NCBI GenBank assembly: GCA_045533055.1
Contig: JAZSHD010000236.1
Location: 4,160 to 68,159, forward strand
Direction: 5' to 3'
DNA: 64,000 nt
Source of the DNA: Victivallaceae bacterium
Lineage (GTDB): Bacteria > Verrucomicrobiota > Lentisphaeria > Victivallales > Victivallaceae
The first letter of the stretch is position 1; every line of letters begins with the position of its first letter. The notes beneath the pieces were generated by a model. That model had not been told where the DNA came from. It searched no databases and worked only from the letters and a program-made list of their open reading frames with translations. The position numbers and the translations under genes were made by a program. Shown here piece after piece: positions 5,153-22,748 of the stretch.

Positions 5153-5233
5153 TCAATATCGTTTTTCCGGAATGACCTCAAGCCAGTAGTTATTGGGCAC
5201 ACTTGTGATAACAGATAGTTTCCCATTATCCAT
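5153..5233 (-). pseudogene. remnant copy A of the 3' end of a glyoxalase/VOC gene (26-codon mini-ORF MDNGKLSVITSVPNNYWLEVIPEKRY*)
   Basis: The minus-strand translation aligns with the C-terminus of the intact VOC gene at 22116-22200 (DPNNYWLEVIPENRY*). It is ~85-90% identical by eye at nucleotide level to copy C (21007-21084). It is followed at 5286-5345 by sequence co-linear with the upstream region of the intact gene (22524-22583). Confidence 0.7.
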
Positions 5234-5446
5234 CTTTGCGTTTTTGAATACGCATATTGTGCATACATTATTGTTGGTAGCTTATAAAACATAATCCGGC
5301 AAGGCTTCAAATGCAAATCACAAATGTTTTTTCCAGCATCTTTTTTTACAGAAAACAGATTATATGATGTTATATCAGGCAGCTTGCCGTATCTCTTTAT
5401 ATTTTATCTTTATCTGGAACAAAACCGGAATGGTTGATCCGCTTAA

Positions 5447-6235
5447 TCAGCCCAGCAGACGCATTTCTATTTCGGTACGGGCTTTTTGCAGCAATGCAAG
5501 CTGTTCCAAGAGATATTTATCGTTGAGAAAGTAGCTGGAAAACGCACTGCTCAATGCTGCGATAGTTACTCCCTCATGACTGCGAACCGGGATCCCCAGA
5601 GAGCTTATGCCGAAAACACTTTCATCCCGCACCACCGAATACCCCAGCTGGCGGACTTCGGAAAGATCTTCTTTCAGCTGTTCCGGATCGCAAATCGTCC
5701 GTTCGGTCAGTTTACGCAAAGGCATTTTTTCCAGAAAACTCTCCAGTTCCGCTTCCGGCAAAGCACTTAAAAGCACCTTCCCGGCAGCCGTTGAGTGGTA
5801 TTGATCCAGCCACCGCTGCCGGATGGAAATGCTTATTGGGTTGCGGCTTTCGATAACATTTACCGCAATGACCTGATTTTGATGAAATACCCCCAGAAAA
5901 CAAGTTACCTGAATTGCCTGACTTAATTTTTGCAGCGGTTCCAGCGACGCTGTACGCAATTCGCTCCATACATCCGCATTATTGCCCAGAATAAATGTCT
6001 GCATACCCAATGTGTAACGCCCGCCACGGTGCTGATTTAAATACCCTCTGGCATACAGCGTGCGGATCAGATTGTTGGCAGTCGCCGGCGATACCCCCAG
6101 TTTGGAAGCGATCTCGCCATTGCGTACCGGTCCGGCAGCATTGCCCACGATTTCCAATATATCCAACGCCCTTTCCACAGATTGCACAAGGGTCTGCCGG
6201 GTATTACGGTTGATGTTGTGTTTTTTTTCTGTCAT
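5447..6235 (-). CDS. IclR family transcriptional regulator
   Basis: Winged-HTH VQSVERALDILEIVGNAAGPVRNGEIASKLGVSPATANNLIRTLYARGYL followed by an IclR-type effector domain. ATG 6235 (GGAG 6 nt upstream) is preferred over ATG 6247. Confidence 0.88.
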   Translation of the reverse strand: MTEKKHNINRNTRQTLVQSVERALDILEIVGNAAGPVRNGEIASKLGVSPATANNLIRTLYARGYLNQHRGGRYTLGMQTFILGNNADVWSELRTASLEPLQKLSQAIQVTCFLGVFHQNQVIAVNVIESRNPISISIRQRWLDQYHSTAAGKVLLSALPEAELESFLEKMPLRKLTERTICDPEQLKEDLSEVRQLGYSVVRDESVFGISSLGIPVRSHEGVTIAALSSAFSSYFLNDKYLLEQLALLQKARTEIEMRLLG

Positions 6236-6297
6236 ATACCACTCCATTACTAAATCATTGTGAAAAATTATAGCTTGTTTTTTGAAAAATACAAATC

Positions 6298-6368
6298 TAT
6301 TTTACAACAATATTGTATTTTTCTTAAATATAAAAACATCCTTGTTAATATTTTACAATAATAATGTA
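6298..6368. promoter_or_regulatory. two operator-like 20-mers in the divergent IclR/hydrolase promoter region
   Basis: TATTTTACAACAATATTGTA (6298-6317) and TATTTTACAATAATAATGTA (6349-6368) are 18/20 identical and 51 bp apart. Each contains TACAA-N5-TTGTA-type dyad symmetry. Binding by the adjacent IclR regulator is an inference. Confidence 0.35.
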
Positions 6369-6487
6369 AAACACCTGTATTTTGCAAAAAAAATAACGAC
6401 AGCCGGAAAACAGGCTTGATTTTTCGGATAGTCTGTGTAAATTTTATCGCAAAATAATTTTAATATCTGATTTGGAGTTTTTATTTT

Positions 6488-8842
6488 ATGACTGGCAATA
6501 CTCTGATCAAACTGCTCATGAGTTTTGCATTTATTGTACAAGGAGTTTTTATTGTGCAAAGCAATCCTTTGATCCCCATGGGGGCGTTGACCGGTAAACC
6601 CACCCGGGCCGAAATCCATGCAATTCTTGCCAAATACAAAGCCGCAGGCATAAATCAATATTTGGTATATCCCCGCAGCGGTTGCGAATTGGAATATTTA
6701 TCCAATGAATACCTTGATACTTTGGCAACGGTTTGCGAAGAAGCCGAAAAGCTGGATTTTTCCGCCATCTGGCTTTATGACGAATTCAACTGGCCCAGCG
6801 GCAGCTGCGGCAAACGCGTGCCGCTGGAAAATCCCAAGTTTGCCATGCCATTTATCTGTGCATACAAGCAAGACGGTAAGATAAAAGTGGAAATCCGGCA
6901 CAATCCGGACTATACAGCGTTAATGAATCCGGCAGCAGTTGACCGTTTTATTGAGCTTACCCACGAACAATATTATAAACGCTTGAAGCCATACTTCGGC
7001 AAGCTGATCAAAGGTATTTTTACTGATGAACCGGAAATCGGCTACTGGAAAGATAAGGCACCCGATGCCATTTTCTGCATGGGCTATTATGAGGGGTTGG
7101 AAGACGATTACCGCAAACTCACCGGCGGCGACCTGTTTGCTGATATTGCCGCCGGCTTGCGGGGCGACCCCAACTATTACCCGGCGGTGTGTGCCGAACT
7201 GCTTGCCAAACGCTTCCGTACTTCGTACATCGACCGCTTGCAGGCGTGGTGTGAAAAGCATGGCATTGTGCTGACCGGCCATTTGATGAACGAAAATCAC
7301 CCGGTAAGTGCCCGTAAAAGCAACGGCAATATCCTGAAAGTCCTGCCCGGGTTCGGCTTGCCGGGTATGGATGAGATCAACACAAAAAACACCATCTCAG
7401 GTGCCGAATGGCTGACCATGGGTACAGCCATGTACGCCATTGAAAAACGGGGCAACAAAGGTGGTTTAGGCGAACTTTTTGCAATAGGCCCCTGCGATTT
7501 GACTTTTACAAGATTGAATCAAATGCTTTACCTGACTGCAGCGTTCGGCGTTGACCACTATGTTTTGGGGATCGCACCTGTGGATTCCCGGGGGTGTGCT
7601 CATAAGCCAAACTGGTACAACTCTTTTGCCTCCGACCAGCCGCAGATGGCGGTTTTTGACGAATGGTCAAAGGCGGCAAAACGGGCTGCGGAACTGGCAA
7701 AAAAGGAACGCTCTTTTGAGATCGCAGTCCGTTACGGCAATGGCGAAGAGCGTTTACAAGATCTTCTGATAAGTCTGGTGCGGCACCAGATATCGTGGCG
7801 TCTGTTGGATAATGAGGAAGCTGCCCCGGATGATATACCCATGGTTTTGGTTTTGCGGAATGACGGCAAAGTCTGGGAAGAAAAAAACATCCTCAAATCC
7901 TATAACTTCGATTATTTGTGGGATATTGCCCTGAAAGACCGACTGCCCCTGAGTTCGGTGGTTTGCGATACAAATGGCAGACCGGTAGACGATGTTTTTC
8001 TCCGCCGTTACCGCGATGGCAGCGTGCTGGTTATTGATATGTCAGAAACCGACCGGGAGCTGGTTCTGCACCGCAACAAACAAAAAGAGCCGTTTATGCT
8101 TTATGCCAATGGCGTCAAAGAATTTCCGCCGACTGTAACCGGCAGCAAAACTGCCGGAAAAACCGCTGTCTTGGCACAAAAAATCCCAAATGGCTGGCAA
8201 GTGGAGTTTGACCGGCCGCACCTTTGCCGGATGCATTTCAACGAAAAAAATGTTGCAGAGCTGGAGCTTCAAGAAGCTCAAAACCTGCGTCTGGCTTTGC
8301 GAATATATAATTGCAAAGCGAAGGCAGAATTTAATGGCAAACTGCTGAAAAATCCCCGTCCCTGCACGGAATTGCCTGATACATTCAACACTCTCTATAA
8401 TGTTTATGATCTGGGGGTAGTTCCAGCAGGCAGACATCGGCTTGAACTGCACGATGCCGGGATCGAATACCCGTTTTTGCCGCAAGCGGTTTTTATCGGC
8501 GAAAAGTTGAGCGATTATGTAGGCAAGATCACTCAAAAGTGCCGTTACCAGCTGCCGGAAACTGCCGGAAAATTCCGGATCACCGAAGTTCCGGCCCCCG
8601 GAGCGGCAGAATTGCTGGTCGATGGTGTATCATTGGGTAAAAAACTTGTCAAACCCTACGAGTGGCAAATCCCCGCCGGATCGCAGGGCAAAAGTGTGGA
8701 AATTGTTGTTGAACACTATCTGTCCGTAGGCGGCTTATTCGGCACCCCGTGGACGGGCTCCGATGAGGCGTCCCGCTGGCGCCGGCAGGCATTAGCCCCC
8801 AAACGGCAGAAAGCCGGAGCTTTAACGGTTGAAATCGAATAA
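6488..8842 (+). CDS. putative glycoside hydrolase (TIM-barrel-like N-terminal half, beta-sandwich C-terminal half), family unassigned
   Basis: 784-aa ORF. WLYDEFNWPSGSCG and GIFTDEPEIGYW motifs resemble glycosidase catalytic regions. An alternative start is GTG 6554, 8 nt after AAGGAG, which would remove the hydrophobic N-terminus. Confidence 0.55.
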   Translation: MTGNTLIKLLMSFAFIVQGVFIVQSNPLIPMGALTGKPTRAEIHAILAKYKAAGINQYLVYPRSGCELEYLSNEYLDTLATVCEEAEKLDFSAIWLYDEFNWPSGSCGKRVPLENPKFAMPFICAYKQDGKIKVEIRHNPDYTALMNPAAVDRFIELTHEQYYKRLKPYFGKLIKGIFTDEPEIGYWKDKAPDAIFCMGYYEGLEDDYRKLTGGDLFADIAAGLRGDPNYYPAVCAELLAKRFRTSYIDRLQAWCEKHGIVLTGHLMNENHPVSARKSNGNILKVLPGFGLPGMDEINTKNTISGAEWLTMGTAMYAIEKRGNKGGLGELFAIGPCDLTFTRLNQMLYLTAAFGVDHYVLGIAPVDSRGCAHKPNWYNSFASDQPQMAVFDEWSKAAKRAAELAKKERSFEIAVRYGNGEERLQDLLISLVRHQISWRLLDNEEAAPDDIPMVLVLRNDGKVWEEKNILKSYNFDYLWDIALKDRLPLSSVVCDTNGRPVDDVFLRRYRDGSVLVIDMSETDRELVLHRNKQKEPFMLYANGVKEFPPTVTGSKTAGKTAVLAQKIPNGWQVEFDRPHLCRMHFNEKNVAELELQEAQNLRLALRIYNCKAKAEFNGKLLKNPRPCTELPDTFNTLYNVYDLGVVPAGRHRLELHDAGIEYPFLPQAVFIGEKLSDYVGKITQKCRYQLPETAGKFRITEVPAPGAAELLVDGVSLGKKLVKPYEWQIPAGSQGKSVEIVVEHYLSVGGLFGTPWTGSDEASRWRRQALAPKRQKAGALTVEIE

Positions 8843-8869
8843 AATTTTAAATATACAATGGAGGGAAAC

Positions 8870-9598
8870 ATGAAAAAACAATTCACTTTGATCGAACTTT
8901 TGGTGGTGATCGCAATTATTGCCATTTTGGCGGCAATGCTAATGCCTGCGCTTTCCACAGCACGGGAATCTGCCCGCAGTACCAGCTGTAAAAACAAACT
9001 CAAACAAATCGGGCTGGCTCTGCACATGTACGCCGGAAGCAATACAGATTATCTGCCTTACGCCTGGAGCAACAACAAGCATGTCGTCCGCTCCGGCTAT
9101 TATGGCACCAGTTACAAATACACCGACAGGCGGACATCGCCGAATATGCTGCTGGTAGGCGGCTACTTTGCCTCCGAAGCCGCCACTTCGGATGAAACGC
9201 AGAAAGTTCTTATGGAAAAATTTTTCAAATGCCCCAGCGATACCACCAACTTCGGAATAGTTAATGACACCATGACCGCTATAAGTTATGAGTGGTGGCA
9301 CATCGATCTGACCGATGCGGAAATAAAGGATCTTACCAACAAAAGCAATCTTGCCCGTATGGTGGTGGGGCGGGACAATCCTGTCTGCACAGTTTTTACC
9401 GATGCTTACGGTCCGATCAGCTGGACTTGCGTGCAGATCAATCACCCGACTTCGGCGAATATCCTGCGGTTGGGCGGCGATGTTGATTTGGTTACAATAC
9501 CTGTCCATGATACTAAAAAGTATCCTAAATATTATGCACACGGAACATCTTTTTTGCGCCGGATCGAAGGCGATACAAAAATCATTGATTGGGAATAA
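8870..9598 (+). CDS. prepilin-type N-terminal cleavage/methylation domain protein, H-X9-DG-like
   Basis: [36 protein letters not shown], with C-terminal [18 protein letters not shown] 8870 is preceded by GGAGGG. Confidence 0.85.
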
Positions 9599-9635
9599 GT
9601 TACAATCTCTATAAATATAAAAAAGGATCAGAAAT

Positions 9636-12600
9636 ATGAAGTTTTTTTCGATCGTCGGCAAGGCTCTTTGTGCCTTTTTTCTGCTGTTTGCAGCATGCGG
9701 CACAATAATTGCAGAAGCAGTGCAAGCACCTTGGATGCAGAAAATTCCGGTTATCGACGGCAAATTCGATGCCGCCGAGTGGCAGGATGCACTGGTTTGG
9801 AAACGCAGTATTTCCGGCAAAAACAAACTCCTTGCCTTGCGTAACACATTGTTTTACTTCGGCTGCGACGGCAAAAATCTCTACCTTGCCCAGCAAAGCG
9901 AGCTTAAACCATCTCATATTCAAGCTGAAGAAAAACGCTGCTGGGAGATAACCTTGCTGCCCCCCGGCGGCAAACAGGTTTCTTTTGCCATTGAGCCGGG
10001 CAAATCCGGCAAACTCCCTGCCGGAGCGGTGGTCAAATACGGTACAGCCAAAGGCTTCTGGCATGTGGAACTTGCCATACCCTTGAGCAGCTTCAGCGGC
10101 AAAGATCTTGCCGACGGCGTCTGGGGCGTGCAGATGTTCCGCAAGTGGAACATCCCCGGCGAAAAAGCCATGTGGCATTTGCCCACAGCTAAAGAGCCTT
10201 TGGCACAAATCAGGATCGTCCCCAAGGGCGTACTCTGCAATCTTGTTGACATGATCAATCATACCAAACTTGCCAGCTGGCGGCTGACCTGGCAAATCAA
10301 AAATACCCTCGATAAACCCGTAACGCTTCGCTGGACTGCCGATGTAAAATCACTGGAAGCTCCCGTCAACCGGGCAAAAAACATAACGCTGGCTCCGGGA
10401 GCAAGCGAAGAGGTGGTTATGCAGAGTATTTTTATGCCGGGTACTTACCGGACTTTTACAGCAGAAGTAAAAAATGCTGCTGACAACACGGTTTACTGGC
10501 AGCGTAAATTTTCGTGGGATTTTGCCCAAGCTAAAAAGTGGTTCGATCCCGATCCCCCCCTGCAGCTGCATTACGCAGTCCACCCCACGGCACAAACTTT
10601 GCGTGTGCGGGTCTTCTGCCGCAACGCCAAAAAATTTGCCAATGTAGCCAAAGCCGAAGTGCTGGTAACTCATGAATCCGGCAAAGTCGTTGCCCGCAAA
10701 GCGTTGACCAAGCGTGCCAACAAGGATTGGTTCAGCTATTGGAACGAGCCGGAAATGAAAAACTGGCCGCTGGGTAAATACACTCTGACCGTAAAAGCTA
10801 CCGGCAAAGACGGTAAAAACCAGGAACTCAAAGGTTCTTTCGGCAGACACAAGTTTGAGTGGGAAAATAACAAACTCGGAAAATCCGAACAATACATACC
10901 TCCCTTCAAGCCGCTCAAGGTCAAAAATAATGAGATCCACGCCCTGCTGACCGGCTACCGCCGCAGCGGAGTTTTCTGGGATGCTGTGTATGCTCAAGAC
11001 AAAAACATTCTGGCAGCCCCAATCGAACTTAAAATCAATGGCGAAACATTCAAATCCATCACTACAAGGCAGGTAAAAGCCCCCTTCGGCCATGTGATCT
11101 TTGAAACCGATTTTATATACAAAGACCTGAAACTTACCGCCGTGCATGATTACGACTACGACGGCATGTGCAAAGTTACACTCAAGTTCGCCCCGGTCAA
11201 GCCGGTGAAAATCGACAGCATGTACTTTGATATCGACCTCAAAAAAGAGTATGTAACGCTTTACAGTGCCATGGGGGCGCGGTTGCGCAACAACTTCCAC
11301 GGCTGGGTCCCCGAAAAAGAGGGCTTGGTCTGGGATAGTTTGCGTGGCAGAGTATTGAATCCGCTGCTCAAAGGATTCCGCCCCTACATCTGGGTCGGCG
11401 AACAATACAAAGGCTTCTGCTGGTTTGCCGAAACTCCCCATAACTGGAGCATCGACCCAAGCAAGCCCGCTCAAACCCTGACGGTGGAAAAATCCGCAGT
11501 CCGGGTGCGGATCAACCTGGTCAACAAACCTGTTACCCGGGATAAAAAGTTTGATATAGTTATGGGCTTCCAGCCCACTCCGGTCAAGCCACAGCCCAAG
11601 GTTGCTGCCATGCCAGGTCTGGTGCATCGGGTGAAGTTTGTACCCCGCTCCAAGTACAGAAATATCATAGCTTCTTACATATATATGTGTATGCGTTACG
11701 AAGACGGTATGCTTTCGGTACCGCCCAACAACGACTGGAGCTTTCTGGAATATGTTGCCGCCGACAAGTGGAAAACTCCGGCGGAAGCCCAGGCTTTTGC
11801 TCTGGATTATGTAAAACGCAATAAGCTGGATCAGAGCGAATACCGCAGTATATACGATTATTCGCCGGCATTGAGCAAAAATCTGCATTTGAGCATGCGG
11901 GCATTTTGCGAGGTCTACCGCCCCAGCAATGTACGCATCCAGTATCAGAATCCCCGTGCCGTAGCCCCAAACTCCAAAGAATTCAATATGTATAGCGATG
12001 AATGGAGCTTGTGGGAAACCCGTCCGCCGAGCCTTGAACGCATGAGCCACTTCGGCTGCGACCCTACGGACAAGCTGACTGATTTTATGCTTTACAACCT
12101 CCGCAAACTCTACAAATACGGGTTTACCGGCATTTATTACGATAATATTTTTGATACGCCATGCTACAATGTAGCCAAAGGCCCGGCCATTGAAGTAGAA
12201 CCGGGTAAAATCATGCCTTATTACCCTTTGTTTGAAATGCGTGAATTGCTCAAACGAAGTGCCCTGTTTCTGCATGAAGAAGGCAGATACCTCGGCGGAT
12301 ACCCCTTGCTGGAGTCGCATATAACCGATACAGTTATGATCCCGCTGGTGAGCTTTAATGCTGTTACGCTGGACTGGGAAATGAATTTCGGTTCCGATCC
12401 TTATCCCCGGCGTTTTTCGCAGCCGTATATCCTTACGAATACAGTAGGTACTCAAACCGGTACTCTGGGGGCAACCATTATCCAGCGTGATAAAACCATG
12501 CCCGGCGATGAGATCGAGCGTTCTGTTCTGGCGGTGCAGTTTGCCAATAACCTTATGAGCGGCAAACTCTACGCCACGCCCGGAATGTTCTATCAGAATG

Positions 12601-13331
12601 CCATCAACTATATCTTTGATTTCGGCTATGAAGCCGAAGGTACAGTCATTTATCCGGGATATCTCAAAAATAATCCGGTAAAGATCAACAACAAAGATGT
12701 TCTGGCAACCGTGGTAAAACGCAAAGATGGTGAAGTATTGCTGATGATCGGCAATGTGGGCAAAAAAGCGGTCAAGGCGACCTTTGATCTGGGCAAATTT
12801 GCTTCCGGTACTATCTATGATGCTGAAAGCAAAACCATCATCGGCAAAGGCAGTAAATTCACTTTGCCGATAGAAAAATACAGCTACCGGTTGATCCAAG
12901 TCGGCAAAGCTCCGGCAAACGCCCAAAAACTGTCAGGTGTTGCCAATTGGAACAAGGCGACCCGGGCGGTGCTGGAACACACAGCAGAAAGTTTGATCAT
13001 CAAAGATATCAAAAAAGATCACTACATCGTTAATAAGACTCTTCAGCTTGATACCAATAAAATCAGCACGATAACGATCAAATACCGTGCCCGCGGCATT
13101 GCCGGTAAAACCAACGGACAGCTTTATTTTGCCAAAGATAAGCAGAAGTTCGGTTCGCCCCGTTTTTTCCGGCTGCCCAGCTTAAAGAGTGATGATGCCT
13201 ACCGCACAATAACTATAAAAACCGCCAAAAATCCGGAGTGGAAAAAACTTGGCAAAGTTACTGCCATAAGATTGGATATGATGGATCAAGCTACTGGAGT
13301 TATTGAAATAAAAGATATAAAATTCCAGTAA
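9636..13331 (+). CDS. large secreted or lipoprotein-like hypothetical protein with CBM9-like N-terminal module
   Basis: 1231 aa. Signal/lipobox-like MKFFSIVGKALCAFFLLFAAC. The IPVIDGKFDAAEWQDA motif resembles other CBM9-like modules in this window. The central region (YGFTGIYYDNIFD) looks glycosidase-like, but no family could be assigned. Confidence 0.6.
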   Translation: MKFFSIVGKALCAFFLLFAACGTIIAEAVQAPWMQKIPVIDGKFDAAEWQDALVWKRSISGKNKLLALRNTLFYFGCDGKNLYLAQQSELKPSHIQAEEKRCWEITLLPPGGKQVSFAIEPGKSGKLPAGAVVKYGTAKGFWHVELAIPLSSFSGKDLADGVWGVQMFRKWNIPGEKAMWHLPTAKEPLAQIRIVPKGVLCNLVDMINHTKLASWRLTWQIKNTLDKPVTLRWTADVKSLEAPVNRAKNITLAPGASEEVVMQSIFMPGTYRTFTAEVKNAADNTVYWQRKFSWDFAQAKKWFDPDPPLQLHYAVHPTAQTLRVRVFCRNAKKFANVAKAEVLVTHESGKVVARKALTKRANKDWFSYWNEPEMKNWPLGKYTLTVKATGKDGKNQELKGSFGRHKFEWENNKLGKSEQYIPPFKPLKVKNNEIHALLTGYRRSGVFWDAVYAQDKNILAAPIELKINGETFKSITTRQVKAPFGHVIFETDFIYKDLKLTAVHDYDYDGMCKVTLKFAPVKPVKIDSMYFDIDLKKEYVTLYSAMGARLRNNFHGWVPEKEGLVWDSLRGRVLNPLLKGFRPYIWVGEQYKGFCWFAETPHNWSIDPSKPAQTLTVEKSAVRVRINLVNKPVTRDKKFDIVMGFQPTPVKPQPKVAAMPGLVHRVKFVPRSKYRNIIASYIYMCMRYEDGMLSVPPNNDWSFLEYVAADKWKTPAEAQAFALDYVKRNKLDQSEYRSIYDYSPALSKNLHLSMRAFCEVYRPSNVRIQYQNPRAVAPNSKEFNMYSDEWSLWETRPPSLERMSHFGCDPTDKLTDFMLYNLRKLYKYGFTGIYYDNIFDTPCYNVAKGPAIEVEPGKIMPYYPLFEMRELLKRSALFLHEEGRYLGGYPLLESHITDTVMIPLVSFNAVTLDWEMNFGSDPYPRRFSQPYILTNTVGTQTGTLGATIIQRDKTMPGDEIERSVLAVQFANNLMSGKLYATPGMFYQNAINYIFDFGYEAEGTVIYPGYLKNNPVKINNKDVLATVVKRKDGEVLLMIGNVGKKAVKATFDLGKFASGTIYDAESKTIIGKGSKFTLPIEKYSYRLIQVGKAPANAQKLSGVANWNKATRAVLEHTAESLIIKDIKKDHYIVNKTLQLDTNKISTITIKYRARGIAGKTNGQLYFAKDKQKFGSPRFFRLPSLKSDDAYRTITIKTAKNPEWKKLGKVTAIRLDMMDQATGVIEIKDIKFQ

Positions 13332-14662: not shown

Positions 14663-14785
14663 CTCAAATTTACTTTTTGGGATCGAGAATTATATCAGTT
14701 TTATAAGAAATTCACACATCGTAAGATGTGTTTTGTGACCCTGGCAATAATATAACAGTATTAACAGAAATGTCAAATCTGAAAA
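14663..14785 (-). promoter_or_regulatory. CRISPR leader with near-consensus sigma70-type promoter
   Basis: On the minus strand: TTGACA (14776-14771), a 16-nt spacer, then TATATT (14754-14749). The leader ends ...AAATTTGAG immediately before the first repeat (14669-14663). The ACACATC-GTAA-GATGTGT hairpin lies within the leader. Confidence 0.6.
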
Positions 14786-15451
14786 TCAAATTTCACACAA
14801 ATCATTGTCAATGAGCAACCGTTCTTCACGAGAAAGTTTTTTATAAACTTTGTTGTCAATAAGTAAAATATTATGTTCTTTCCGGCAGCAGGTTTCTGTA
14901 AAAAGCTCTAATACAGCATCGTCCAAAAAAGAACGGAGATTTACAAATATAAAAACAGAAGCCAGCCCGTTATCATTCATCAAATCCATATATACCAACA
15001 GTTTTTCCGCCAAGTCCGGATAATCTTCTTTTAACTGAATTCCTGCTGATTTTAACAAAGATGATATCGAAAGTCGTTCCGGCTCCAGTTCTAAATCATT
15101 TTGGAAGGCAAGATCATAAATTAATTTTTCAATACTCCCGAGTATCTGCTGACTCCGCTCGTAAAACTCCTGATTCATTGCCAGTTTTTCCATTTTAGCA
15201 AGAATTTTATTCAACAGAGTTTTCTGATTGATTTCGAAAGAAAAAAGGTCTGCAATCAGGACCAAATTACCGGAAACAGGAATCGGTTTTTCATCGACAG
15301 AGAGTACAACAGGACCATCTTCCCCGCAGCTTTGGTGATGCAAATCGTCGATAAAACGAAAAAACAAACTTGGATTTTCAATCACTAGCGACGGAAAGGT
15401 TCCGTTGTTAAACTTGATAACAGACTTGATTTCAGGATAAGCCAGCTTCAT
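14786..15451 (-). CDS. csn2: type II-A CRISPR-associated protein Csn2
   Basis: 221-aa ORF immediately downstream of cas2 (4-nt ATGA overlap) and immediately upstream of the leader. Its size and position are diagnostic of subtype II-A. Sequence similarity to known Csn2 is only weak by eye. Confidence 0.75.
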   Translation of the reverse strand: MKLAYPEIKSVIKFNNGTFPSLVIENPSLFFRFIDDLHHQSCGEDGPVVLSVDEKPIPVSGNLVLIADLFSFEINQKTLLNKILAKMEKLAMNQEFYERSQQILGSIEKLIYDLAFQNDLELEPERLSISSLLKSAGIQLKEDYPDLAEKLLVYMDLMNDNGLASVFIFVNLRSFLDDAVLELFTETCCRKEHNILLIDNKVYKKLSREERLLIDNDLCEI

Positions 15452-15768
15452 AAAATCACCAATGATTGTTCGGTTGTTACCACATCGCTTTTCATATCAC
15501 CGACGATAAATGAAATCCCAGAAAATTGTTTTTCCGTAATAATCATTGCACAAACCATTCCCTGGGGCGGCTTAAAACTTTCGATTCTAGCCACAACGCT
15601 TTTTGCCATTGCTTCGTTGATAACCATACGGCAATACACAGACTCCTGCAGCATAAAAAAGCCGTTTAAGATCAAATCATTGCGAATACGCCGATAATTC
15701 CGCCGGTTTTCAGAAGTTGCTGTCGGTAAATCAAAAAACACCATCAATCTCATAAATCTGTTACTCAT
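15448..15768 (-). CDS. cas2: CRISPR-associated endoribonuclease Cas2
   Basis: 106 aa. MSNRFMRLMVFFDLPTATSENRRNYRRIRNDL...QESVYCR closely parallels S. pyogenes Cas2 ([32 protein letters not shown]...QFSVYSK). Confidence 0.93.
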   Translation of the reverse strand: MSNRFMRLMVFFDLPTATSENRRNYRRIRNDLILNGFFMLQESVYCRMVINEAMAKSVVARIESFKPPQGMVCAMIITEKQFSGISFIVGDMKSDVVTTEQSLVIL

Positions 15769-15770: not shown

Positions 15771-16682
15771 TTATGTTACCGGTTCAGTAAAAGTTCGTTT
15801 TTTCTGCCATGAACAAAATTTCACAGCAGATAGCTTCCCGAGAGTAATTGTCTTGAAAATACTTCGGACATAGATCATAATACAATCGTCCAAACGCCGT
15901 TGAGTTCCATCAATAAAGAATGGCTGATTGAAAATTTCCAGCATCCGATGTTTTTCTTTAGAACCGAACTGAATGAATCCACAGGAATCAACCCAACGAT
16001 CGATCAGAATGCGGAACGGCTCCATCAGGTCGCAGCTCAGATTGAAGTGATTAAATGTATTATGATGTGTGATCCCCAACTGAGTGGAATAACCGCTGGA
16101 AACGATTTCACGGTTGAATGCCGATAAGATCAATGAATAACCGTAGTTCAAAGCGGAATCAACAGCCGATCCATCACCCCGCCTGAATGAATTTCCGAAG
16201 ATTTTATTGAAATAAACCTTTGCGGCATGACCTTCCCGATTGCTCATATCTCCGTATTGCAGATTTTTTACATAATCCATCAACATTTCAGACTCGCGGT
16301 TCATCTTTTTTTCAGCTAAAAATAATGCCTGATTGCGTATTTTCTCTGCAATGATTTCTGTCCAAAGCAGTTGGCAAAAATCTGTATTCCACTGAATTTG
16401 TTCCCGTAATTTTCCGGAAGACTCTCCATGTCCGTAACATGGGATCAGTTCTGCACAGGGAGAGTGCTTTTCATCACAGAAAATGACTTTGATCTTCCGT
16501 TTTATCAATTCTGCAAGCAGACAGCCCGTCACACAGCAAGATGGATTTTCCACAATCAGGGTATTTACCTCATCAAGAAAAACTCGTACGGTATCGTCAT
16601 CACGACGGATGACAAGATACCCCATGCGGAGATCAAGCTTGCTGCGTTTCTCAATAACAACTGTCCGGAAGCTCATGATCAA
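15771..16682 (-). CDS. cas1: CRISPR-associated integrase Cas1 (type II)
   Basis: 303 aa. NREGHAAKVYFNKIFG, ALNYGYSLILSAFNREIV and GITHHNTFNHFNLSCDLMEPFR match conserved type II Cas1 blocks. Confidence 0.95.
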   Translation of the reverse strand: MIMSFRTVVIEKRSKLDLRMGYLVIRRDDDTVRVFLDEVNTLIVENPSCCVTGCLLAELIKRKIKVIFCDEKHSPCAELIPCYGHGESSGKLREQIQWNTDFCQLLWTEIIAEKIRNQALFLAEKKMNRESEMLMDYVKNLQYGDMSNREGHAAKVYFNKIFGNSFRRGDGSAVDSALNYGYSLILSAFNREIVSSGYSTQLGITHHNTFNHFNLSCDLMEPFRILIDRWVDSCGFIQFGSKEKHRMLEIFNQPFFIDGTQRRLDDCIMIYVRSIFKTITLGKLSAVKFCSWQKKRTFTEPVT

Positions 16683-16684: not shown

Positions 16685-19600
16685 TCAGATCAAATCAAGA
16701 AGATTGACACTCTTTGTTTCATGCAAACCGCTGGCATCAGAGTAAACAATCCGAACCGTTGAAAATGTTTTTTTCCAGTTTGACAAACTACTGGGGAGTG
16801 TTGTTACCGCAGCATTCTCAACACCACCGATCGAACTCAAATCGACTCCAGAACCACTGCTTCTGCCCATACATTTGATAATTCCCAATAATATTTCAGC
16901 TTGTTTTTCCGGGGGAAGTGCAATAAACTTATCGCGTCCTTTTTCAAGATATTCCAGGGGATTTGCTGGTCGCTTGGCAAACATTCCTGTCCGCAATTTA
17001 TCCGTTAAGGCATCATAAAGTTCTACATTGCTGTCCACAGAAAATTTATCATACTCTTCGGAATACATAAATTTTGGATTTTTACGTTTTTTCTCATAGA
17101 ATGATTCCAAACGTTTGATGTACCGTTCCCAATAACTATCCAATAACAAAGGCGAAGCGATTCCTACACCAAGTTTACTTCCACCACTGCTTTTCCCGTT
17201 AAGGATGAACCGCAACCCATTATCGACCTCAAAAACAGTTTTGATCTTGATCGGTTTTATTCCCAGCGGGAACTTGACAGTAAAGTCTTTTTTCCCTGTC
17301 GGATCAATAAAGATTTTTACATACATCTCAGCAAAAGCCTTATCGTTCAAGTACTTATCTGCAATCATCAAATCAACCGGGACAAGAGTCAACTCTTTTT
17401 TAGTTTTCTTTTTTACAGTTTCTTCAGTTAAAACGAAAGAGAAAAATGCCGCTGCTGCTTTTCTGTAACCGCCATAAATTTCCGTCGGCTTCCCTTTTTT
17501 CAAAGGAATCAATCCAGATGTTGCAGGTTTGGGAGTCTGATCAAACAAACCTCCATGCTGGCAGAAAGTATAATTTGTAAAATGCATATAATTCCGTTTC
17601 AGGATATTTTTTACTTGAGCAATATTTCTGCTGCCATCCCAAATAATTTCGCTGTGCCTGTTTTTAAGGCGGCTTTTCTCTCCGAATACAACTTTTGTCT
17701 TTACACTGTATTCGTCAGAATGTTCCATAAAATAGTTGCGGGTGAAATATTCATGCCAGACATTTCCGACAACAATATTGAGATACGCATCTTTTCCATG
17801 ATGCAAATCATTGACAACACGAGATTTCACCAGATCGAATTCATGTCGAAAATCAGAAACCAGTCCGGCTTTGACGTAAACGATTTCGGTGTCCGGATAA
17901 CGCTCTTTCAGCAATTCTGTTAAGACTTTTGTTGACTGTCTGTTTTCCACCAGCTGCCGATTGATGAAGCCCCATTTTTCATCTTCAGAGAACGAAGTGG
18001 AACGAGTCAAACGGAAAAATTTTTCATCAGAGATCAAACCATTATCTTTCAAATATTTCCAGAACGGCGTCATTTTTTTGCGGATATCTGCATTCAGCGG
18101 GTAAGCATCACTCTTCGCACCATTGATTTCACTGCGAACCAGAACGAGGTTATTCAGAAGGCTGTCATCTTTCACCTTTGACTGCGGATAGATATGCTCT
18201 TTATTGCAAAGAGAAAGACCCGTGATTGATATGGATTCCCCTGTATACATATCCCGCCCAAGCTGCATGAAATACAGATAAAGAGTATCTTTTTGCAATG
18301 CAGCTTCGTCATAGCTGTCAAGTTCCTTACTGAGTCTTCTGATATCATCATCGGCTATACTTTCATAAAGTTTTTTCAGACTGACAATGCGTGAAAGTTT
18401 CCTTTTCCCTTTTTCCTTGCTGTCAACATCGCGAGCCATTTCCACAAAAATTTTCCGCGGAGCTTTTCCCATAGTCTTTACAATCTCATCAAGGATGGTA
18501 AAGGTACGGATGATCGGGCGTTTGACAGCGTTGGAAACATACATTTCATCAAGTCGATTCGTAAGCGACTGCGGTCTTTCGGAATAATATTCCCGTCTGG
18601 CAGCATCCACCATCTTCCGGAATGGATATTTATCACTCATCAACTGCTGTAGATTGAGATTGTATTCCCACATCATGTTGATGATGGAAAGTTTTCCTCC
18701 GGTTTTAACATCAAAATGCCCCGGTTCCGTCAGAAACTTTCTGGAAAGTCTTCCAAAACCCTGAAATTTTTTGAACGAGAGTTTTTTGACATCATCGTCT
18801 GATAGTTTTTGGAATTTTTTCAAATAATTGCGGTACCGGAGATTATCTTCCGTAAAAGATCTTTGGTGAATGATCTCTTCAGCTTCTGACTCTGTAAGTT
18901 TTTTCTCTTCAAAAAAAGGGTTAAAAATCTTCCAGCTGCTCAAAGAAGCCGTAATCGTATCATCAATTCCAGTTATACAGCTTTCATCCAATTCATTATA
19001 AAGATTGTTGGATTTCAAACAATTGAGTATTGTCTTTTTCGTAATCTTACTGTATTTGAAGAACAAATCATACAGCAACTGCTTGCATTTTGTTGTTACT
19101 GGAGCACCATTAATATGAATTGCGTTCAATAGATTTAACACCTCAAAACGCTGATACAGCAGAGAATGTTTCGGTAAAACTTCTTCATTGGGTAAATAGG
19201 TGCACTTATTGCACATTCGTTTGATGAAAGCTTCTTCGCTGGCTTCAAGATCAACTTTCTTTTCAAAATTCCACGGCAGAATCTTTCCCTCAGTTTTTCG
19301 TTTCAGCCAGGCAAAATTGCTGTGAGAGTTCAGAGGCCCGACAAAATACGGTATCTTGAATTCCATAATAGAAAGGATTTTATTTTTAACGGATAAACCA
19401 TCTTTATCGCATTCCAAAAGGAACGGTAAATATCCGGAAGCTTTGCTTAGCAGATTATTCAATTCATTCCAATACAACTGATAAGGAACCGTTCTGTTAT
19501 TAGTGACAACCTGTTTCGGCAGGAATTTATTTGACAAAATATCCAGCCCAATCTGATCAAAAAGACTTTGATCTGCGGAATCTTCAATCACCATATTTTT

Positions 19601-20761
19601 AAGTTTTGATTTGAGAAAGTTATAAAAATCTTCTGAATTGGCTCTTTTTTCTGCAGAACCGATATATGATACATAATTGGCTCTACTTTTGGTGTTGCGG
19701 AAAATTTCCTGAAAACCCTGTTTCGTCAAATACTTTTTTACAAGATATTTCAGCTGTTTCAAGTCAGACTTGTGCTTTTCATAAATCTTCACTTTTGAAT
19801 CAGAAATGTTCTTCCCGCCGCCAATAATATCCGCAAGAATTGACCAATCAAAAACTTTTTTCATAAGAAGCAGCAGTGCTGCATCCTCTTCAGACAACTC
19901 AGAAAGCATTTCTGCAATTTTTTCATCATCAGAATCAAGCAGAATTTTTATATCTTCATACTTGGCAGAGGGAAAGAGTTTTGCAGCTTTCGTTTCCAAG
20001 CCGCACAGCAGCCGCAAGAATTCATTTTCATCAATCCAAGGTAATTCGTCTGAGGAAAGAGCTTTTTTAAATTTTTTGACCTGAAGAAATTCCGCAACTT
20101 TTTTCCCTTTATCAGATCTTGTCGACGCCGATTTCAAAATATTTCCGATGTCAGTGATTTTTACGCCAAGATGTTTCCACGAAAAGATATATCCATTATC
20201 TTCGACATAATTTTCCAATTCGTTGTAGACAGACTGAAAATCAATTAATTCATCAACTTTTTCTTTTGCAACTTCACAGAAAAAATGTCCCCTGTGAACA
20301 ACCAGCCAGGCACAGGCAAGATATACAAGACGAACATCATGCGGAGAATCGGAATCCATCAGTTCGGAAATAAGATGATGAATTGTTGGATACTGCTTAT
20401 AAAAATCAACATCTGTGTATTCAGAATCAGAGAAGATCGCAAAACGGGGTTCTGAGGCATCTTTTTGCAGAGCACTGCAGTCGATCCGCTTAAAAAAGTT
20501 CCGGTCAACTTTGTCGATTTCTACTGAAAAAAGTTCCCGCAAAAGCTGTACCCTCTGCTGCCTGCGGTCAAGACGTCTCCTGGCGGCACGATGAGTCCGG
20601 CGTTCTTCTGCCAAGTTTGCAGTTTCAAAAAGATGGACACCCCATATCGGATGCTGCTGGTACTTGATCAAATCATAATTTGTCTCCGTTACAGCGTACC
20701 CGGTCGAATTGGTCCCAACATCAAATCCGACAAAATAATCAAGATTTTTTTGATTTTTCAT
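16685..20761 (-). CDS. cas9: CRISPR-associated endonuclease Cas9 (type II-A, ~SpCas9-sized)
   Basis: 1358 aa. RuvC-I GFDVGTNSTGYAV; Arg-rich bridge helix RRTHRAARRRLDRRQQR; RuvC-II IFVEMARD; HNH EHIYPQS...NLVLVRSEINGAKSD; RuvC-III DLHHGKDAYLNIV. Confidence 0.97.
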   Translation of the reverse strand: MKNQKNLDYFVGFDVGTNSTGYAVTETNYDLIKYQQHPIWGVHLFETANLAEERRTHRAARRRLDRRQQRVQLLRELFSVEIDKVDRNFFKRIDCSALQKDASEPRFAIFSDSEYTDVDFYKQYPTIHHLISELMDSDSPHDVRLVYLACAWLVVHRGHFFCEVAKEKVDELIDFQSVYNELENYVEDNGYIFSWKHLGVKITDIGNILKSASTRSDKGKKVAEFLQVKKFKKALSSDELPWIDENEFLRLLCGLETKAAKLFPSAKYEDIKILLDSDDEKIAEMLSELSEEDAALLLLMKKVFDWSILADIIGGGKNISDSKVKIYEKHKSDLKQLKYLVKKYLTKQGFQEIFRNTKSRANYVSYIGSAEKRANSEDFYNFLKSKLKNMVIEDSADQSLFDQIGLDILSNKFLPKQVVTNNRTVPYQLYWNELNNLLSKASGYLPFLLECDKDGLSVKNKILSIMEFKIPYFVGPLNSHSNFAWLKRKTEGKILPWNFEKKVDLEASEEAFIKRMCNKCTYLPNEEVLPKHSLLYQRFEVLNLLNAIHINGAPVTTKCKQLLYDLFFKYSKITKKTILNCLKSNNLYNELDESCITGIDDTITASLSSWKIFNPFFEEKKLTESEAEEIIHQRSFTEDNLRYRNYLKKFQKLSDDDVKKLSFKKFQGFGRLSRKFLTEPGHFDVKTGGKLSIINMMWEYNLNLQQLMSDKYPFRKMVDAARREYYSERPQSLTNRLDEMYVSNAVKRPIIRTFTILDEIVKTMGKAPRKIFVEMARDVDSKEKGKRKLSRIVSLKKLYESIADDDIRRLSKELDSYDEAALQKDTLYLYFMQLGRDMYTGESISITGLSLCNKEHIYPQSKVKDDSLLNNLVLVRSEINGAKSDAYPLNADIRKKMTPFWKYLKDNGLISDEKFFRLTRSTSFSEDEKWGFINRQLVENRQSTKVLTELLKERYPDTEIVYVKAGLVSDFRHEFDLVKSRVVNDLHHGKDAYLNIVVGNVWHEYFTRNYFMEHSDEYSVKTKVVFGEKSRLKNRHSEIIWDGSRNIAQVKNILKRNYMHFTNYTFCQHGGLFDQTPKPATSGLIPLKKGKPTEIYGGYRKAAAAFFSFVLTEETVKKKTKKELTLVPVDLMIADKYLNDKAFAEMYVKIFIDPTGKKDFTVKFPLGIKPIKIKTVFEVDNGLRFILNGKSSGGSKLGVGIASPLLLDSYWERYIKRLESFYEKKRKNPKFMYSEEYDKFSVDSNVELYDALTDKLRTGMFAKRPANPLEYLEKGRDKFIALPPEKQAEILLGIIKCMGRSSGSGVDLSSIGGVENAAVTTLPSSLSNWKKTFSTVRIVYSDASGLHETKSVNLLDLI

Positions 20762-20789: not shown

Positions 20790-20795
20790 AACAAT

Positions 20796-20893
20796 TGTAG
20801 TCTGTGACCCCTATAAAACTGCACTACGAGTTCAAATAAAAATTTATTCAAATCATTAGCACAAGCTAAATGCACGTTGGTGCATCTTTATTT
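20796..20893 (+). ncRNA. tracrRNA: tracrRNA (predicted)
   Basis: GACCCCTATAAAACTGCACTAC (20806-20827) is a perfect 22-nt complement of crRNA repeat positions 9-30. A GAG bulge follows, then TTCAAAT, which pairs with repeat positions 1-7 as in the SpCas9 lower stem. Next come an AU-rich nexus-like segment, the hairpins TTAGC-ACAA-GCTAA and TGCAC-GTTG-GTGCA, and finally TCTTTATTT. The 5' end is approximate. Confidence 0.8.
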
Positions 20894-21006
20894 GAGAGCT
20901 CTTTTCCCTTTTTGTATTTTATTGTTCTGTTACTATACTCTACAAGAGTGGACTTCTTTAGTCCACTCTATGAAAAAATCAGGAAAATTTTTTATTATTT
21001 CATTTT

Positions 21007-21084
21007 TTACCGGGTTTCCGGGATGACCTCCAGCCAGTAGTTATTGGGCACACTTGTCATAACAGATAGTCCCCCATTATTCAT
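21007..21084 (-). pseudogene. remnant copy C of the VOC gene 3' end (25-codon mini-ORF MNNGGLSVMTSVPNNYWLEVIPETR*)
   Basis: Very similar to copy A across the whole mini-ORF, with similarity ending within a few nt of the ATG and the stop. It overlaps the last 8 nt of the RhuM-like gene in another frame. Confidence 0.7.
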
Positions 21085-22093
21085 CTTTTGGACGGTTGCG
21101 GAGCGATTCTTCAAGCAGTTTCAACTCCTGTAAATCTTCCCAATCAGCCTGTTTGGCGGCTTCTGTTTTACGCCTTTGGCTGAATACTTCGTAGCGTTCG
21201 CTTACGATTGTTTTCATCTCATTATTGCTGATTGAACCCGCGTTGTTCAATATTTCAAAACCGTTGAACTCCAATAACTGATTGACATTATTCCGCCAAA
21301 AATTCATGGTTAGAGAACGACGATTTTTGATCCGCAATTCAGCCGACTCCAAAAAGATCATGACCAGGCGGTTAAGTGAATCTATTTCATCCCGGCTTAA
21401 AAAGTTTTTAGCAATAAATATATCCCCTTTGCGGACGATCGATCCAGCCCAACTGGTCGCACCGAAATTTGGCAGTTCGGCTTGGGCTCGTTGAACAATG
21501 ATCTCTGCAGCTGTAAGATGAGTTACCGCATAAAGCAGTTTATTCTGCGTTTCAGCAAAGAACATCTGGGTCGATTTGTCAGTAGCATCGTAATCACTGC
21601 TCAAACTGAATAATTCCCGAACCTTTTGGTAAAAGCGTTTTTCCGAAGCCCGAATCTCCCGGATGCGTTCCAGCAATTCATCAAAATAATCAGGGCGACC
21701 GTCAGGATTTTTCAAACGGTCATCGTCAATGACAAAACCTTTCCGCATAAATTCAACAAGATTGCGGTTCGCCCATTGCCGGAATTGCACGCCCCGCTTG
21801 CTCCGCACCCGAAACCCAATGGCAAGGATCATATCAAGGGAATAATAAGCCACATTGTAATCTTTGCCGTCGGCGGCAGTTGTTAAATAAAACTTAACAA
21901 CTGAATTTTCTTGCAACTCATTGTCTTCAAATATGTTGGATATGTGGGTTGAGATGTTAGCTTTGGAGGTGGCAAAAAGTTCAGCCAACTGATTTTGGTT
22001 CAGCCAAACACTGCCGTCTTTAGCCAATAAAGAGATATTCACCTTGCCGTCAGAGGTTGAATAAATGATGATTTCTTCTGAACTATTGTCCAT
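21077..22093 (-). CDS. RhuM family (virulence-protein RhuM-like) protein
   Basis: 338 aa. IIIYSTSDGKVNISLLAKDGSVWLNQNQLAELF...HISNIFEDNEL...AIGFRVRSKRGVQFRQWANRNL matches the conserved RhuM N-terminal region as I remember it. Confidence 0.75.
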   Translation of the reverse strand: MDNSSEEIIIYSTSDGKVNISLLAKDGSVWLNQNQLAELFATSKANISTHISNIFEDNELQENSVVKFYLTTAADGKDYNVAYYSLDMILAIGFRVRSKRGVQFRQWANRNLVEFMRKGFVIDDDRLKNPDGRPDYFDELLERIREIRASEKRFYQKVRELFSLSSDYDATDKSTQMFFAETQNKLLYAVTHLTAAEIIVQRAQAELPNFGATSWAGSIVRKGDIFIAKNFLSRDEIDSLNRLVMIFLESAELRIKNRRSLTMNFWRNNVNQLLEFNGFEILNNAGSISNNEMKTIVSERYEVFSQRRKTEAAKQADWEDLQELKLLEESLRNRPKDE

Positions 22094-22115
22094 ACTATTG
22101 TCTTTCTGAAAATCA

Positions 22116-22490
22116 TCAATACCGGTTTTCCGGGATGACTTCGAGCCAGTAGTTGTTTGGGTCGGTCACGAAGTAAATTCCCATTTCGGGGTTTTCGTAG
22201 CAGATGCAGCCCATTTCTTCGTGGCGTTTGTGGGCTCCTTCGTAATCATCGACCTTGAATGCCAAATGAAATTCGTTGTCGCCGAGGTCGTATGGGCGAT
22301 CCATTTCCCGCAGCCAGGTCAACTCAAGCTGATGGCTTGAATTGCCGTCTTCCAGATATACGATGATAAAGCTGCCGTCTTTAGCGTTGATGCGGCGGAC
22401 TTCGTGCATATCAAAAGCATCCTGATAAAATTTAATGCTCTTGTCAAGGTCAAAAACGTTCAAATTGTTGTGAACCATCCGGAATTTCAT
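22116..22490 (-). CDS. VOC family protein / lactoylglutathione lyase-like (glyoxalase I)
   Basis: 124 aa from ATG 22490 (AGGAGAG upstream). MKFRMVHNNLNVFDLDKSIKFY...HQLELTW...FHLAFKV...YWLEVI carries the H/E/H/E metal-ligand pattern of glyoxalase I-type VOC proteins. Confidence 0.85.
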   Translation of the reverse strand: MKFRMVHNNLNVFDLDKSIKFYQDAFDMHEVRRINAKDGSFIIVYLEDGNSSHQLELTWLREMDRPYDLGDNEFHLAFKVDDYEGAHKRHEEMGCICYENPEMGIYFVTDPNNYWLEVIPENRY

Positions 22491-22748
22491 AGAAAATCTC
22501 TCCTGTTTTAATGTATTGCAAACAAAACATAATACCACAACACCCTAAATGCAAATTCGGAATGTTTTTTCTTGCTGATATTTAACTTCTTTTTTATCGA
22601 TGCTGTCTGGGGATGGGCTAAACACGGAGAATGAACAACTGATATTTTTTATTATGAAAAAGTTAAATTTTCACAATATATGAGATTATTTTTTCGTTTG
22701 AGGTTGATTTTTTACTTGAACAGTGTTATTTTATAACATGGAGGAGTT

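Follow-up and report, generated by a model that had tools for sequence, protein, structure and literature searches.

A probable accretion site for defense cassettes, including a type II-A CRISPR-Cas9 module, at the 3' end of a VOC gene in Victivallaceae

The window analyzed here is a 64,000-nt stretch of DNA from a Victivallaceae bacterium (assembly GCA_045533055.1, contig JAZSHD010000236.1, positions 4,160-68,159 of the forward strand), in which the 3' end of a VOC/glyoxalase-I-like gene is present four times in the same orientation and the repeated ends bound, among other DNA, a RhuM-family gene and a type II-A CRISPR-Cas9 module. We consider it probable (about 0.7) that the last ~70 bases of this VOC gene are an accretion site for defense cassettes that do not encode a recombinase themselves. 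Sixty-four related loci (L001-L064), taken from metagenome-assembled genomes (MAGs) of gut Lentisphaeria/Victivallaceae and from metagenomes, were compared with the window and show an array architecture of units that run from core to core and are polymorphic in presence, absence, and order. An earlier reading of the same DNA from its letters alone, hereafter the sequence-only reading, had proposed serial insertion into the VOC gene or Campbell-type recombination through it, a proposal that is now supported by empty sites, recurring cassettes, and a mobile Cas9 unit.

Four copies of the VOC 3' end and the units between them

The VOC gene, the displaced copies of its 3' end, and the units that they bound are listed below in the direction of VOC transcription.

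22116-22490, minus strand: intact VOC/glyoxalase-I-like gene, 124 amino acids (aa) (Pfam Glyoxalase; NCBIfam glyoxalase I-like), its 3' end being the probable docking site
22116-22200, minus strand: copy D, the end of the intact VOC gene, with the core between a VOC-type left arm and a right arm that moves with RhuM
21077-22093, minus strand: RhuM-family gene, a single-gene cassette (Pfam PF13310, E=7.6e-103), beginning 22 nt past the VOC stop codon
21007-21084, minus strand: copy C, in which the core follows a pseudo-VOC left arm that overlaps the stop codon of RhuM and leads into a native-type VOC end (..PETR*)
20945-20969, minus strand: native VOC terminator-like hairpin, AGAGTGGAC-N7-GTCCACTCT, after an A-rich stretch
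20795-20895, plus strand: gene resembling a trans-activating CRISPR RNA (tracrRNA), with a 61% repeat-like anti-repeat copy (20798-20848) and a terminator hairpin (20870-20885) followed by a T-run
16685-20761, minus strand: cas9, 1358 aa, type II-A, with homologues that have Cas9 Pfam domains
15771-16682, minus strand: cas1 (Pfam Cas_Cas1)
15448-15768, minus strand: cas2 (Pfam CRISPR_Cas2)
14786-15451, minus strand: csn2 (Pfam Cas_Csn2)
14676-14785: CRISPR leader
13503-14675, minus strand: CRISPR array (18 repeats, each 36 nt long, and 17 spacers); its terminal degenerate repeat abuts copy B
13428-13502, minus strand: copy B, with the core between a degenerate pseudo-VOC left arm and a right arm fused to a GH123 flank
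5153-5269, minus strand: copy A with the 3' remnant of a four-helix-bundle gene (5238-5269); a MATE gene starts 16 nt past the right arm

A search with the 34-mer CCCAAYAACTACTGGCTNGARGTCATYCCGGAAA, allowing up to 3 mismatches, was run over both the whole window and 100 dinucleotide-preserving shuffles. This search resulted in four matches, all on the minus strand (A, 5164-5197; B, 13439-13472; C, 21015-21048; D, 22127-22160), with no fifth copy across the 64 kb and 0 matches in the 100 shuffles. The same four copies were recovered by a repeat search, in which A and C were 89% identical over 81 nt, and tblastn of the VOC protein against the window returned these fragments only. The four minus-strand copies are thereby confirmed at the junctions where the sequence-only reading had placed them, and they stand clearly above the shuffled controls, an alignment no better than such controls having been named there as a possible refutation. 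The junctions hold in detail as well: copy B ends at 13502 and is followed from 13503 by the degenerate first CRISPR repeat, the RhuM open reading frame (ORF) fills the C-D interval with its stop codon overlapping the left edge of C, and C, described as lying ~115 bp beyond the tracrRNA terminator, is ~110 nt from that hairpin.

The anchor gene itself is highly conserved. Its protein is 100% identical on 8 metagenome contigs on which the DNA differs at 19-40 of 375 positions, all differences being synonymous and almost all at third codon positions, and the VOC gene is therefore subject to very strong purifying selection.

Nineteen distinct displaced fragments from 5 lineages could be aligned without gaps, each laid out as a 33-nt left arm, the core, and a stop codon. 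The left arm (ATGGG.A..TA....TTATGA.....GTGCCC) is a frameshifted, diverged copy of VOC codons ~102-110; it has the same length in every displaced fragment, and it begins at the stop codon of the cargo gene before it or overlaps that codon (TAATGGGG). Co-segregation with the right flank is seen for the 29 nt that run from the Leu codon to the stop codon: identity was 92.6% between fragments with the same right flank and different left arms, as against 81.2% between fragments with the same left arm and different right flanks (Mann-Whitney p=6e-4, from pairs that are not independent). The 12 nt AAYAAYTAYTGG are uninformative in this respect. RhuM carries the same right arm in every setting, and the D right arm, CTCGAAGTCATYCCGGAAAACCGGTATTGA+TGATTTTCAG, stands ahead of RhuM in 7 loci irrespective of the left neighbor. 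Because the right arm co-segregates with the downstream cargo and the left arm is fixed, a Campbell-type single-crossover insertion fits these data, and the pattern is that expected if exchange took place at or to the left of the Leu codon. Target-site duplication was also considered as an origin of the repeated ends and was rejected, as RhuM brings its own right arm wherever it is located.

The exact site pattern was found in only 8 stretches among 185,579 species-representative genomes, 8/8 of them from Lentisphaeria/Victivallaceae MAGs, and the site-bearing MAGs with a stated origin come from sheep colon or roe deer cecum. A scan of Joint Genome Institute metagenomes for the site resulted in only one contig, on which VOC is single-copy. 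An exact-protein look-up of the Csn2 and RhuM sequences of the window found neither on record.

Empty sites, recurring cassettes, and the Cas9 module in relatives

The sequence-only reading had suggested a search for MATE-VOC-DeoR adjacency without the inserts and for genomes carrying only some of the blocks; VOC-MATE adjacency and such genomes were both found. In L041, whose VOC protein is 90% identical to that of the window, the VOC gene is followed 14 nt later by a 464-aa MatE gene; homology to the window begins at the core of copy A (5197), and relative to L041 all 17 kb from D to A are extra. In L001 and L005 the intact VOC gene is fused straight to the right flank of copy B and the GH123 block, L001 being 98.5% identical to window positions 13475-10601. 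The B right flank thus stands behind an intact VOC gene or another fragment in L001, L005, and L012 (98.5% identity for L001 and L012, and 87% for L005 over the 110 nt available). The VOC gene is joined to an AraC-type gene in L003, L004, L006, L008, and L009, and in L015 the same AraC flank is preceded by a fragment, RhuM, and a fragment, so that L009 (RhuM absent) and L015 (RhuM present) form a precise presence/absence pair for the 1.1-kb RhuM unit. L042 differs from L043 by one extra 361-aa gene, bounded by a perfect 40-nt duplication. The order of the units varies too: VOC is followed by a four-helix-bundle gene, a fragment, RhuM, a fragment, a four-helix-bundle gene, a fragment, and a RhuM stub in L013; by ThsA, ThsB, a 364-aa gene, and two fragments in L016; and by a four-helix-bundle gene, a fragment, and cas9 in L052.

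About 10 cargo types were found across the 64 loci. RhuM matches the PADLOC candidate defense family PDC-S05 (E=1e-141), and the ends of the gene overlap the site. Its homologues are at least 70% identical in Bacteroidota and Planctomycetia genomes, an unusually high conservation across phyla that suggests frequent horizontal transfer of this candidate defense gene. Other cargo between VOC cores in the relatives includes a four-helix-bundle protein of 198-206 aa (TIGR02436/TIGR04258), the Thoeris pair ThsA-Macro and ThsB-TIR followed by the 364-aa protein (L016), and an EcoRI-type methylase with a GmrSD/HNH nuclease (L019 and L022, in the order VOC, methylase, GmrSD/HNH, fragment). A II-C-like Cas9 locus (L010 1-5352), with a 1232-aa Cas9, cas1, cas2, and an unrelated 36-nt repeat, occupies the same slot, behind RhuM, a fragment, and the native terminator hairpin. 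In L013 (1-1861), inverted cas1 and cas2 genes and an array with a repeat related to that of L010 are present, the array being joined inside a truncated RhuM gene; the cas9 of L013 would lie beyond the stretch covered. In two lineages the 361-364-aa protein (L016 4837-5931; L042 16969-18054; L015 1-582) is the cargo of a cassette bounded by fragments, by itself in one case and following the Thoeris genes in the other, and we therefore regard it as a candidate new defense gene. It has no match in Pfam, PADLOC, NCBIfam, or Protein Data Bank (PDB) sequences and may be a novel enzyme. The defense cargo genes are co-oriented with VOC, the first of them beginning 0-80 nt past the stop codon, with the inverted CRISPR-Cas remnant in L013 as the exception; the cargo may be expressed by read-through from upstream transcription.

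The CRISPR-Cas9 module of the window was assigned to type II-A since cas9, cas1, cas2, and csn2 lie in one operon next to an array of 36-nt repeats and a tracrRNA with an anti-repeat. The Cas9 homologues carry Cas9_REC, HNH_4, Cas9_RuvC, and Cas9_PI domains. The CRISPR region had no match in Rfam, and we infer the tracrRNA assignment from complementarity to the repeat and from the terminator. The closest Cas9 homologues are 92, 88, 85, 78, and 66% identical and come from Lentisphaeria-type contigs, the source of one contig giving the name Lentisphaerae; identity drops to ~48% in the homologues labeled Clostridia or Clostridiales.

The Cas9 cassette, for which the sequence-only reading had advised a search of public genomes, recurs in L042-L049, L050/L051, and L052-L054. 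In every context retrieved, covering four lineages, the II-A cas9 lies directly behind a VOC core, and the genes upstream differ by group (PIG-L and related genes in L042-L049; GFO_IDH in L050/L051; a DEAD helicase, VOC, and the four-helix-bundle gene in L052-L054). Window positions 21039-14167 are 83.7% identical to L042, the alignment beginning inside the C core and running to the array, and positions 21049-16149 are 87.8% identical to L050, whereas identity is 70-74% for the body of the VOC gene and 68-71% for other shared host genes. The GC content is 0.36-0.40 across the module, as against 0.47-0.52 in the flanks, and a pseudo-VOC fragment lies beyond the array in L042, L043, and L045. 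Because the module is more similar between lineages than the host genes are and is low in GC, these comparisons show that it has moved horizontally from one lineage to another as a single unit bounded by cores. No spacers are common to the array of the window and those of the relatives, and the arrays have evidently evolved independently since the module was transferred.

The proximal end of the module has a history of its own. Within the ~110 nt beyond C, cggtaa and an A-rich run are followed by the hairpin AGAGTGGAC..GTCCACTCT, the A-rich stretch and hairpin occupying the ~60 nt to the right of C, and this is the native VOC downstream region; the hairpin element stands behind the intact VOC gene in L027-L030, which have no cassettes, and in L042, and behind fragments in L010, L016, and L050. 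Because its proximal ~110 nt correspond to the native VOC end and terminator region, the Cas9 module has the look of a core-to-core segment excised at some time from a position behind an intact VOC gene, and not of a unit whose ends are unrelated to VOC. The view that the ~7.5-kb Cas9 unit is a discrete cassette equal to the exact B-C interval therefore stands insofar as the unit is bounded by cores and was horizontally moved, and needs amendment for the proximal ~110 nt, which are native VOC end and terminator.

Further variation was seen at these loci. The distance from the terminal repeat to the pseudo-VOC arm is 0 nt in the window (13503), as compared to a trailer of ~230 nt in L042 and L043 (L042 16599-16830). 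In L050 and L051 (6683-7950) the II-A locus retains cas9 and an array of 8 repeats, but its cas1 is truncated and both cas2 and csn2 are gone; a fragment follows immediately past the stop codon of the intact VOC gene in these two loci.

Proposed mechanism, rival explanations, and known systems

In the mechanism that we propose, a cassette would exist as a circle made up of the core, a VOC-like right arm with a stop codon, the cargo, and the 33-nt pseudo-VOC left arm. One crossover in a short zone of the core (about CCN-AAY-AAY-TAY-TGG) would put the circle behind the VOC gene or an earlier fragment, whereupon the incoming right arm would complete the VOC reading frame and the former 3' end would be shifted downstream, behind the pseudo-arm of the cassette. 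Repeats of the insertion would build an array, and the reverse reaction would remove cassettes. Along VOC transcription, the window would then be composed of VOC, [RhuM] C, and [native VOC end and terminator, tracrRNA, cas9-cas1-cas2-csn2, array] B, followed by a resident glycan block, a collapsed second VOC locus (promoter copy, four-helix-bundle remnant, and A), and MATE. We infer both the circular intermediate and the enzyme. As to the latter, we lean slightly towards a site-specific recombinase whose gene lies in another part of the genome, and away from RecA working on 40-70 bp of homology, because the homology is limited in length and imperfect, exchange falls in a narrow zone, and the arm is constant in length and motif in lineages with ~70% host-gene identity. 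More tentatively still, the Victivallaceae might possess an integron-like platform, in which a dedicated recombinase encoded elsewhere would use the ~70-bp pseudo-VOC site to capture, reorder, and export defense cassettes, type II CRISPR-Cas9 systems among them; this broader picture is possible, and we would not at present bet on it.

Several observations weigh against accretion of cassettes at the VOC 3' end. Pfam scans of all long ORFs of the window, and of the cargo proteins that were scanned or had Pfam annotations in the fetched loci (not whole genomes), revealed no recombinase, and the statement of the sequence-only reading that the window has no integrase, transposase, or recombinase gene holds. 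Empty sites are known at the population level only, with no circle or excision junction observed, and the relatives are all MAGs or metagenome contigs, many of them short. The Cas9 module always lies behind a native-type VOC end and could for that reason be an old neighbor of VOC that was inherited partly vertically. Exchange is also not strictly confined to one position: in copy B a right arm of AraC type is joined to a GH123 flank, and the right arms in L006 and L008 are mosaic, exceptions that look like gene conversion or homologous recombination. Finally, the intact VOC gene and the fragment of L052 share an unusual ..PAGKY* tail, which suggests local duplication or homogenization rather than import.

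Some of these observations would be accommodated by RecA alone, if one ancient duplication of the VOC tail had been followed by unequal crossing-over, gene conversion, and allelic replacement after DNA uptake. Such a course of events, which we judge less likely but a serious rival, would account for the mosaic arms of copy B and L006/L008, the homogenized tails of L052, and the want of a recombinase in the window and the examined cargo; the tandem duplication of four-helix-bundle and RhuM genes in L013 resembles unequal crossing-over, the extreme conservation of VOC DNA could anchor homology, and collapsed or inverted VOC copies are present at the A locus of the window, in L001, and in L012. 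However, the 40-70 bp shared at 80-95% identity, with perfect runs of ~14-20 bp, are a poor substrate for RecA, and arrangements nonetheless differ among genomes that are 90-98% identical. Exchange points that cluster to the left of the Leu codon, and a pseudo-arm whose length and motif are constant across lineages with ~70% host-gene identity, likewise speak against homology alone and are more readily explained by a site-specific enzyme.

That the fragments are att scars of decayed self-mobile elements (prophages, integrative and conjugative elements (ICEs), or integrative and mobilizable elements), each of which once had its own VOC-targeting integrase, is improbable. Duplication of the 3' end of a target gene is the classic signature of an integrase, and tandem accretion with integrase-less derivatives, the cis-mobilizable elements (CIMEs), is documented. 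The ~10 cargo types in the 64 loci nevertheless include no integrase, excisionase, relaxase, or phage gene, no integrase-bearing element sits at the same site in any of the 64 loci, the cassettes are minimal (RhuM, at 1.1 kb, has gene ends that overlap the site), and independent decay would not yield identical arms of fixed length. Three pattern scans of a viral-contig collection (strict core; pseudo-arm plus core; degenerate core) resulted in 0 matches, and a phage or element attP was not supported.

A conventional integron, or an integrase-less cluster of attC sites, in which the fragments would be attC sites recombined as folded single strands by IntI, is very unlikely. The co-oriented cargo 0-80 nt past a stop codon, the array behind a fixed platform, and the site-like repeat that ends each cassette would suit such a system, but the fragments are conserved in sequence and not in structure: folding 18 of them with RNAalifold gave a consensus of -2.9 kcal/mol and 0 covarying pairs. 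Moreover, neither the window nor any of the loci with an array has IntI or another tyrosine recombinase beside the array, the only one seen near VOC being a XerC/D-like gene of a fragment-free lineage, and the site lies in coding sequence, at the 3' end of a housekeeping-type gene. Equally little probability attaches to the fragments being genuine small genes for 25-aa peptides such as MNNGGLSVMTSVPNNYWLEVIPETR, or products of chance or assembly. An in-frame ATG is present in A and C and the frame is open in most fragments, but it is broken in copy B, and the codon after TTATGAC is variable at all three positions; the chance expectation is 0, independent assemblies from many samples give the same junction types, and the repeats are too short and divergent to cause misassembly.

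Among known systems, the closest analogue of the proposed accretion at the VOC 3' end is the tandem defense cassettes of the staphylococcal cassette chromosome (SCC) at rlmH. SCC composite islands at the 3' end of rlmH/orfX are tandem defense cassettes mobilized in trans by Ccr recombinases (PMC10055296), and CRISPR-cas can ride inside SCCmec (bioRxiv 10.1101/2023.03.19.533347). By analogy, with VOC in the place of rlmH, the units described here would dock at the 3' end of a conserved gene, and direct repeats of that end would delimit tandem units, many of them without their own recombinase and with cargo rich in anti-phage defense, whole CRISPR-Cas loci included. They differ from SCC in that no Ccr-like serine recombinase was seen, the scanned or Pfam-annotated cargo proteins containing neither a Resolvase nor a Recombinase domain; in the unrelated target gene, phylum (Lentisphaerota), and site sequence; in that a unit may be a single gene immediately behind the preceding stop codon; and in the 33-nt pseudo-copy of the target gene that every VOC unit has to the left of its core.

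Site-specific tandem accretion at a gene 3' end is also seen with ICESt1 and its CIME at the 3' end of fda in Streptococcus thermophilus, where integrase-less, att-flanked elements can be mobilized in cis or in trans; in that system an integrase-bearing partner occupies the same site, whereas none was present in the loci examined here. Sedentary chromosomal integrons can carry defense cassettes, and their arrays are likewise composed of co-oriented, packed cassettes behind a fixed platform, each ending in a recombination site and with order and content that vary among strains; the VOC arrays are unlike them in having no IntI, no attC-type fold, a coding 3' end as the site, and a 7.5-kb multi-gene CRISPR-Cas operon as a cassette. 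Integrative mobile elements exploiting Xer (IMEX) at dif, and the pdif modules of Acinetobacter plasmids, are recombinase-less modules that use a host enzyme, and the VOC units resemble them as recombinase-less modules in tandem or flanked by sites. Unlike dif and pdif sites, the VOC site is intragenic; no clear 11-6-11 dyad was apparent when the fragment alignment was inspected by eye, and a XerC/D-like gene is found near VOC only in a fragment-free lineage. Tandem accretion at the 3' end of a gene is thus already known; judged against these analogues, the new elements would be the target gene, the phylum, the site, the tight units without a recombinase, and the pseudo-copy.

If cassettes do accrete at the VOC 3' end, complete CRISPR-Cas9 systems and other defense genes can move between species as site-flanked cassettes without a mobility gene, and the logic of SCC/rlmH and of integrons would extend to an unrelated and little-studied gut phylum. 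The short DNA site (33-nt arm plus ~40-nt core) would provide a handle for finding the responsible enzyme, which, if it is a site-specific recombinase, may be useful as a tool. The site could also be used to mine metagenomes for new defense genes, with the 361/364-aa and four-helix-bundle proteins as immediate candidates.

The A locus, the glycan block, and the surroundings of the VOC gene

Beyond copy B, the window continues with the following features.

5447-13331, mixed strands: glycan-utilization block with a GH123-like protein of 1231 aa, a DUF1559 pseudopilin, a 784-aa protein, and an IclR regulator (Pfam)
5286-5345, minus strand: copy of the VOC upstream region (36/48 identity, 5286-5333 vs 22524-22571)
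3743-5137, minus strand: MATE efflux gene (Pfam MatE), the ancestral downstream neighbor of VOC as judged from L041

The sequence-only reading had counted the glycan block between A and B among the inserted units, which was not borne out. The GC content of the block (0.47-0.51) is like that of the rest of the window, its genes are of mixed orientation, and it ends in a stretch that resembles the VOC upstream (promoter) region and not in a pseudo-VOC arm; for these reasons it is probably resident DNA between two VOC loci and not a cassette.

The proposal that A is a collapsed extra VOC locus, on the other hand, is supported and can be refined to a collapsed VOC gene plus four-helix-bundle cassette. 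Co-linearity of 5286-5345 with the VOC upstream region at 22524-22583 had been claimed; the similarity is modest, yet above shuffles, the local score for 5286-5333 against 22524-22571 being 36 compared with 18.9 +/- 2.8 for shuffled sequences and reached in 1/2000 shuffles. The same stretch is conserved ahead of VOC in L001, L013, and L016. Positions 5238-5269 (...RIQKRKDG*) correspond to the 3' end of the four-helix-bundle gene, an intact version of which in L013 is 91% identical over 120 nt. We read the locus as a second VOC locus, composed of VOC, a four-helix-bundle gene, a fragment, and MATE, that may have collapsed by internal deletion. Comparable collapsed or inverted VOC remnants are present in L012 and L001. 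In L001 (703-919) the remnant, ~800 nt upstream of the intact gene, is a VOC pseudogene in inverted orientation with an internal deletion (69-85% aa identity), and may be taken as a further sign that VOC copies have duplicated and then decayed around these loci.

A 16-kb segment of the window (22600-38900), extending from VOC to a PocR/AraC gene (38985-39896), is inverted in L014 (1687-7615) and missing in L002 (204-1079), where PocR lies directly ahead of VOC. The 5' side of VOC is thus a rearrangement breakpoint as well; a search of the segment ends (22.6-38.9 kb) for inverted repeats found none.

More distant VOC lineages (P0073, P0068, and P0016) have downstream regions that are variable or plain and without fragments. 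In the P0068-type lineage (L055-L064; VOC 81% aa identity) a gene for a 332-aa XerC/D-like tyrosine recombinase lies ~3 kb downstream of VOC, following a protein-kinase gene, and its proximity to VOC in this fragment-free lineage is probably coincidental.

Beyond the array, the window consists mostly of glycan-utilization loci, in each of which very large CBM9/GH123/BNR proteins are found together with a DUF1559 pseudopilin-like gene and a regulator of PocR/AraC or similar type, and its single tRNA gene, Leu-TAA, is at 62050-62137.

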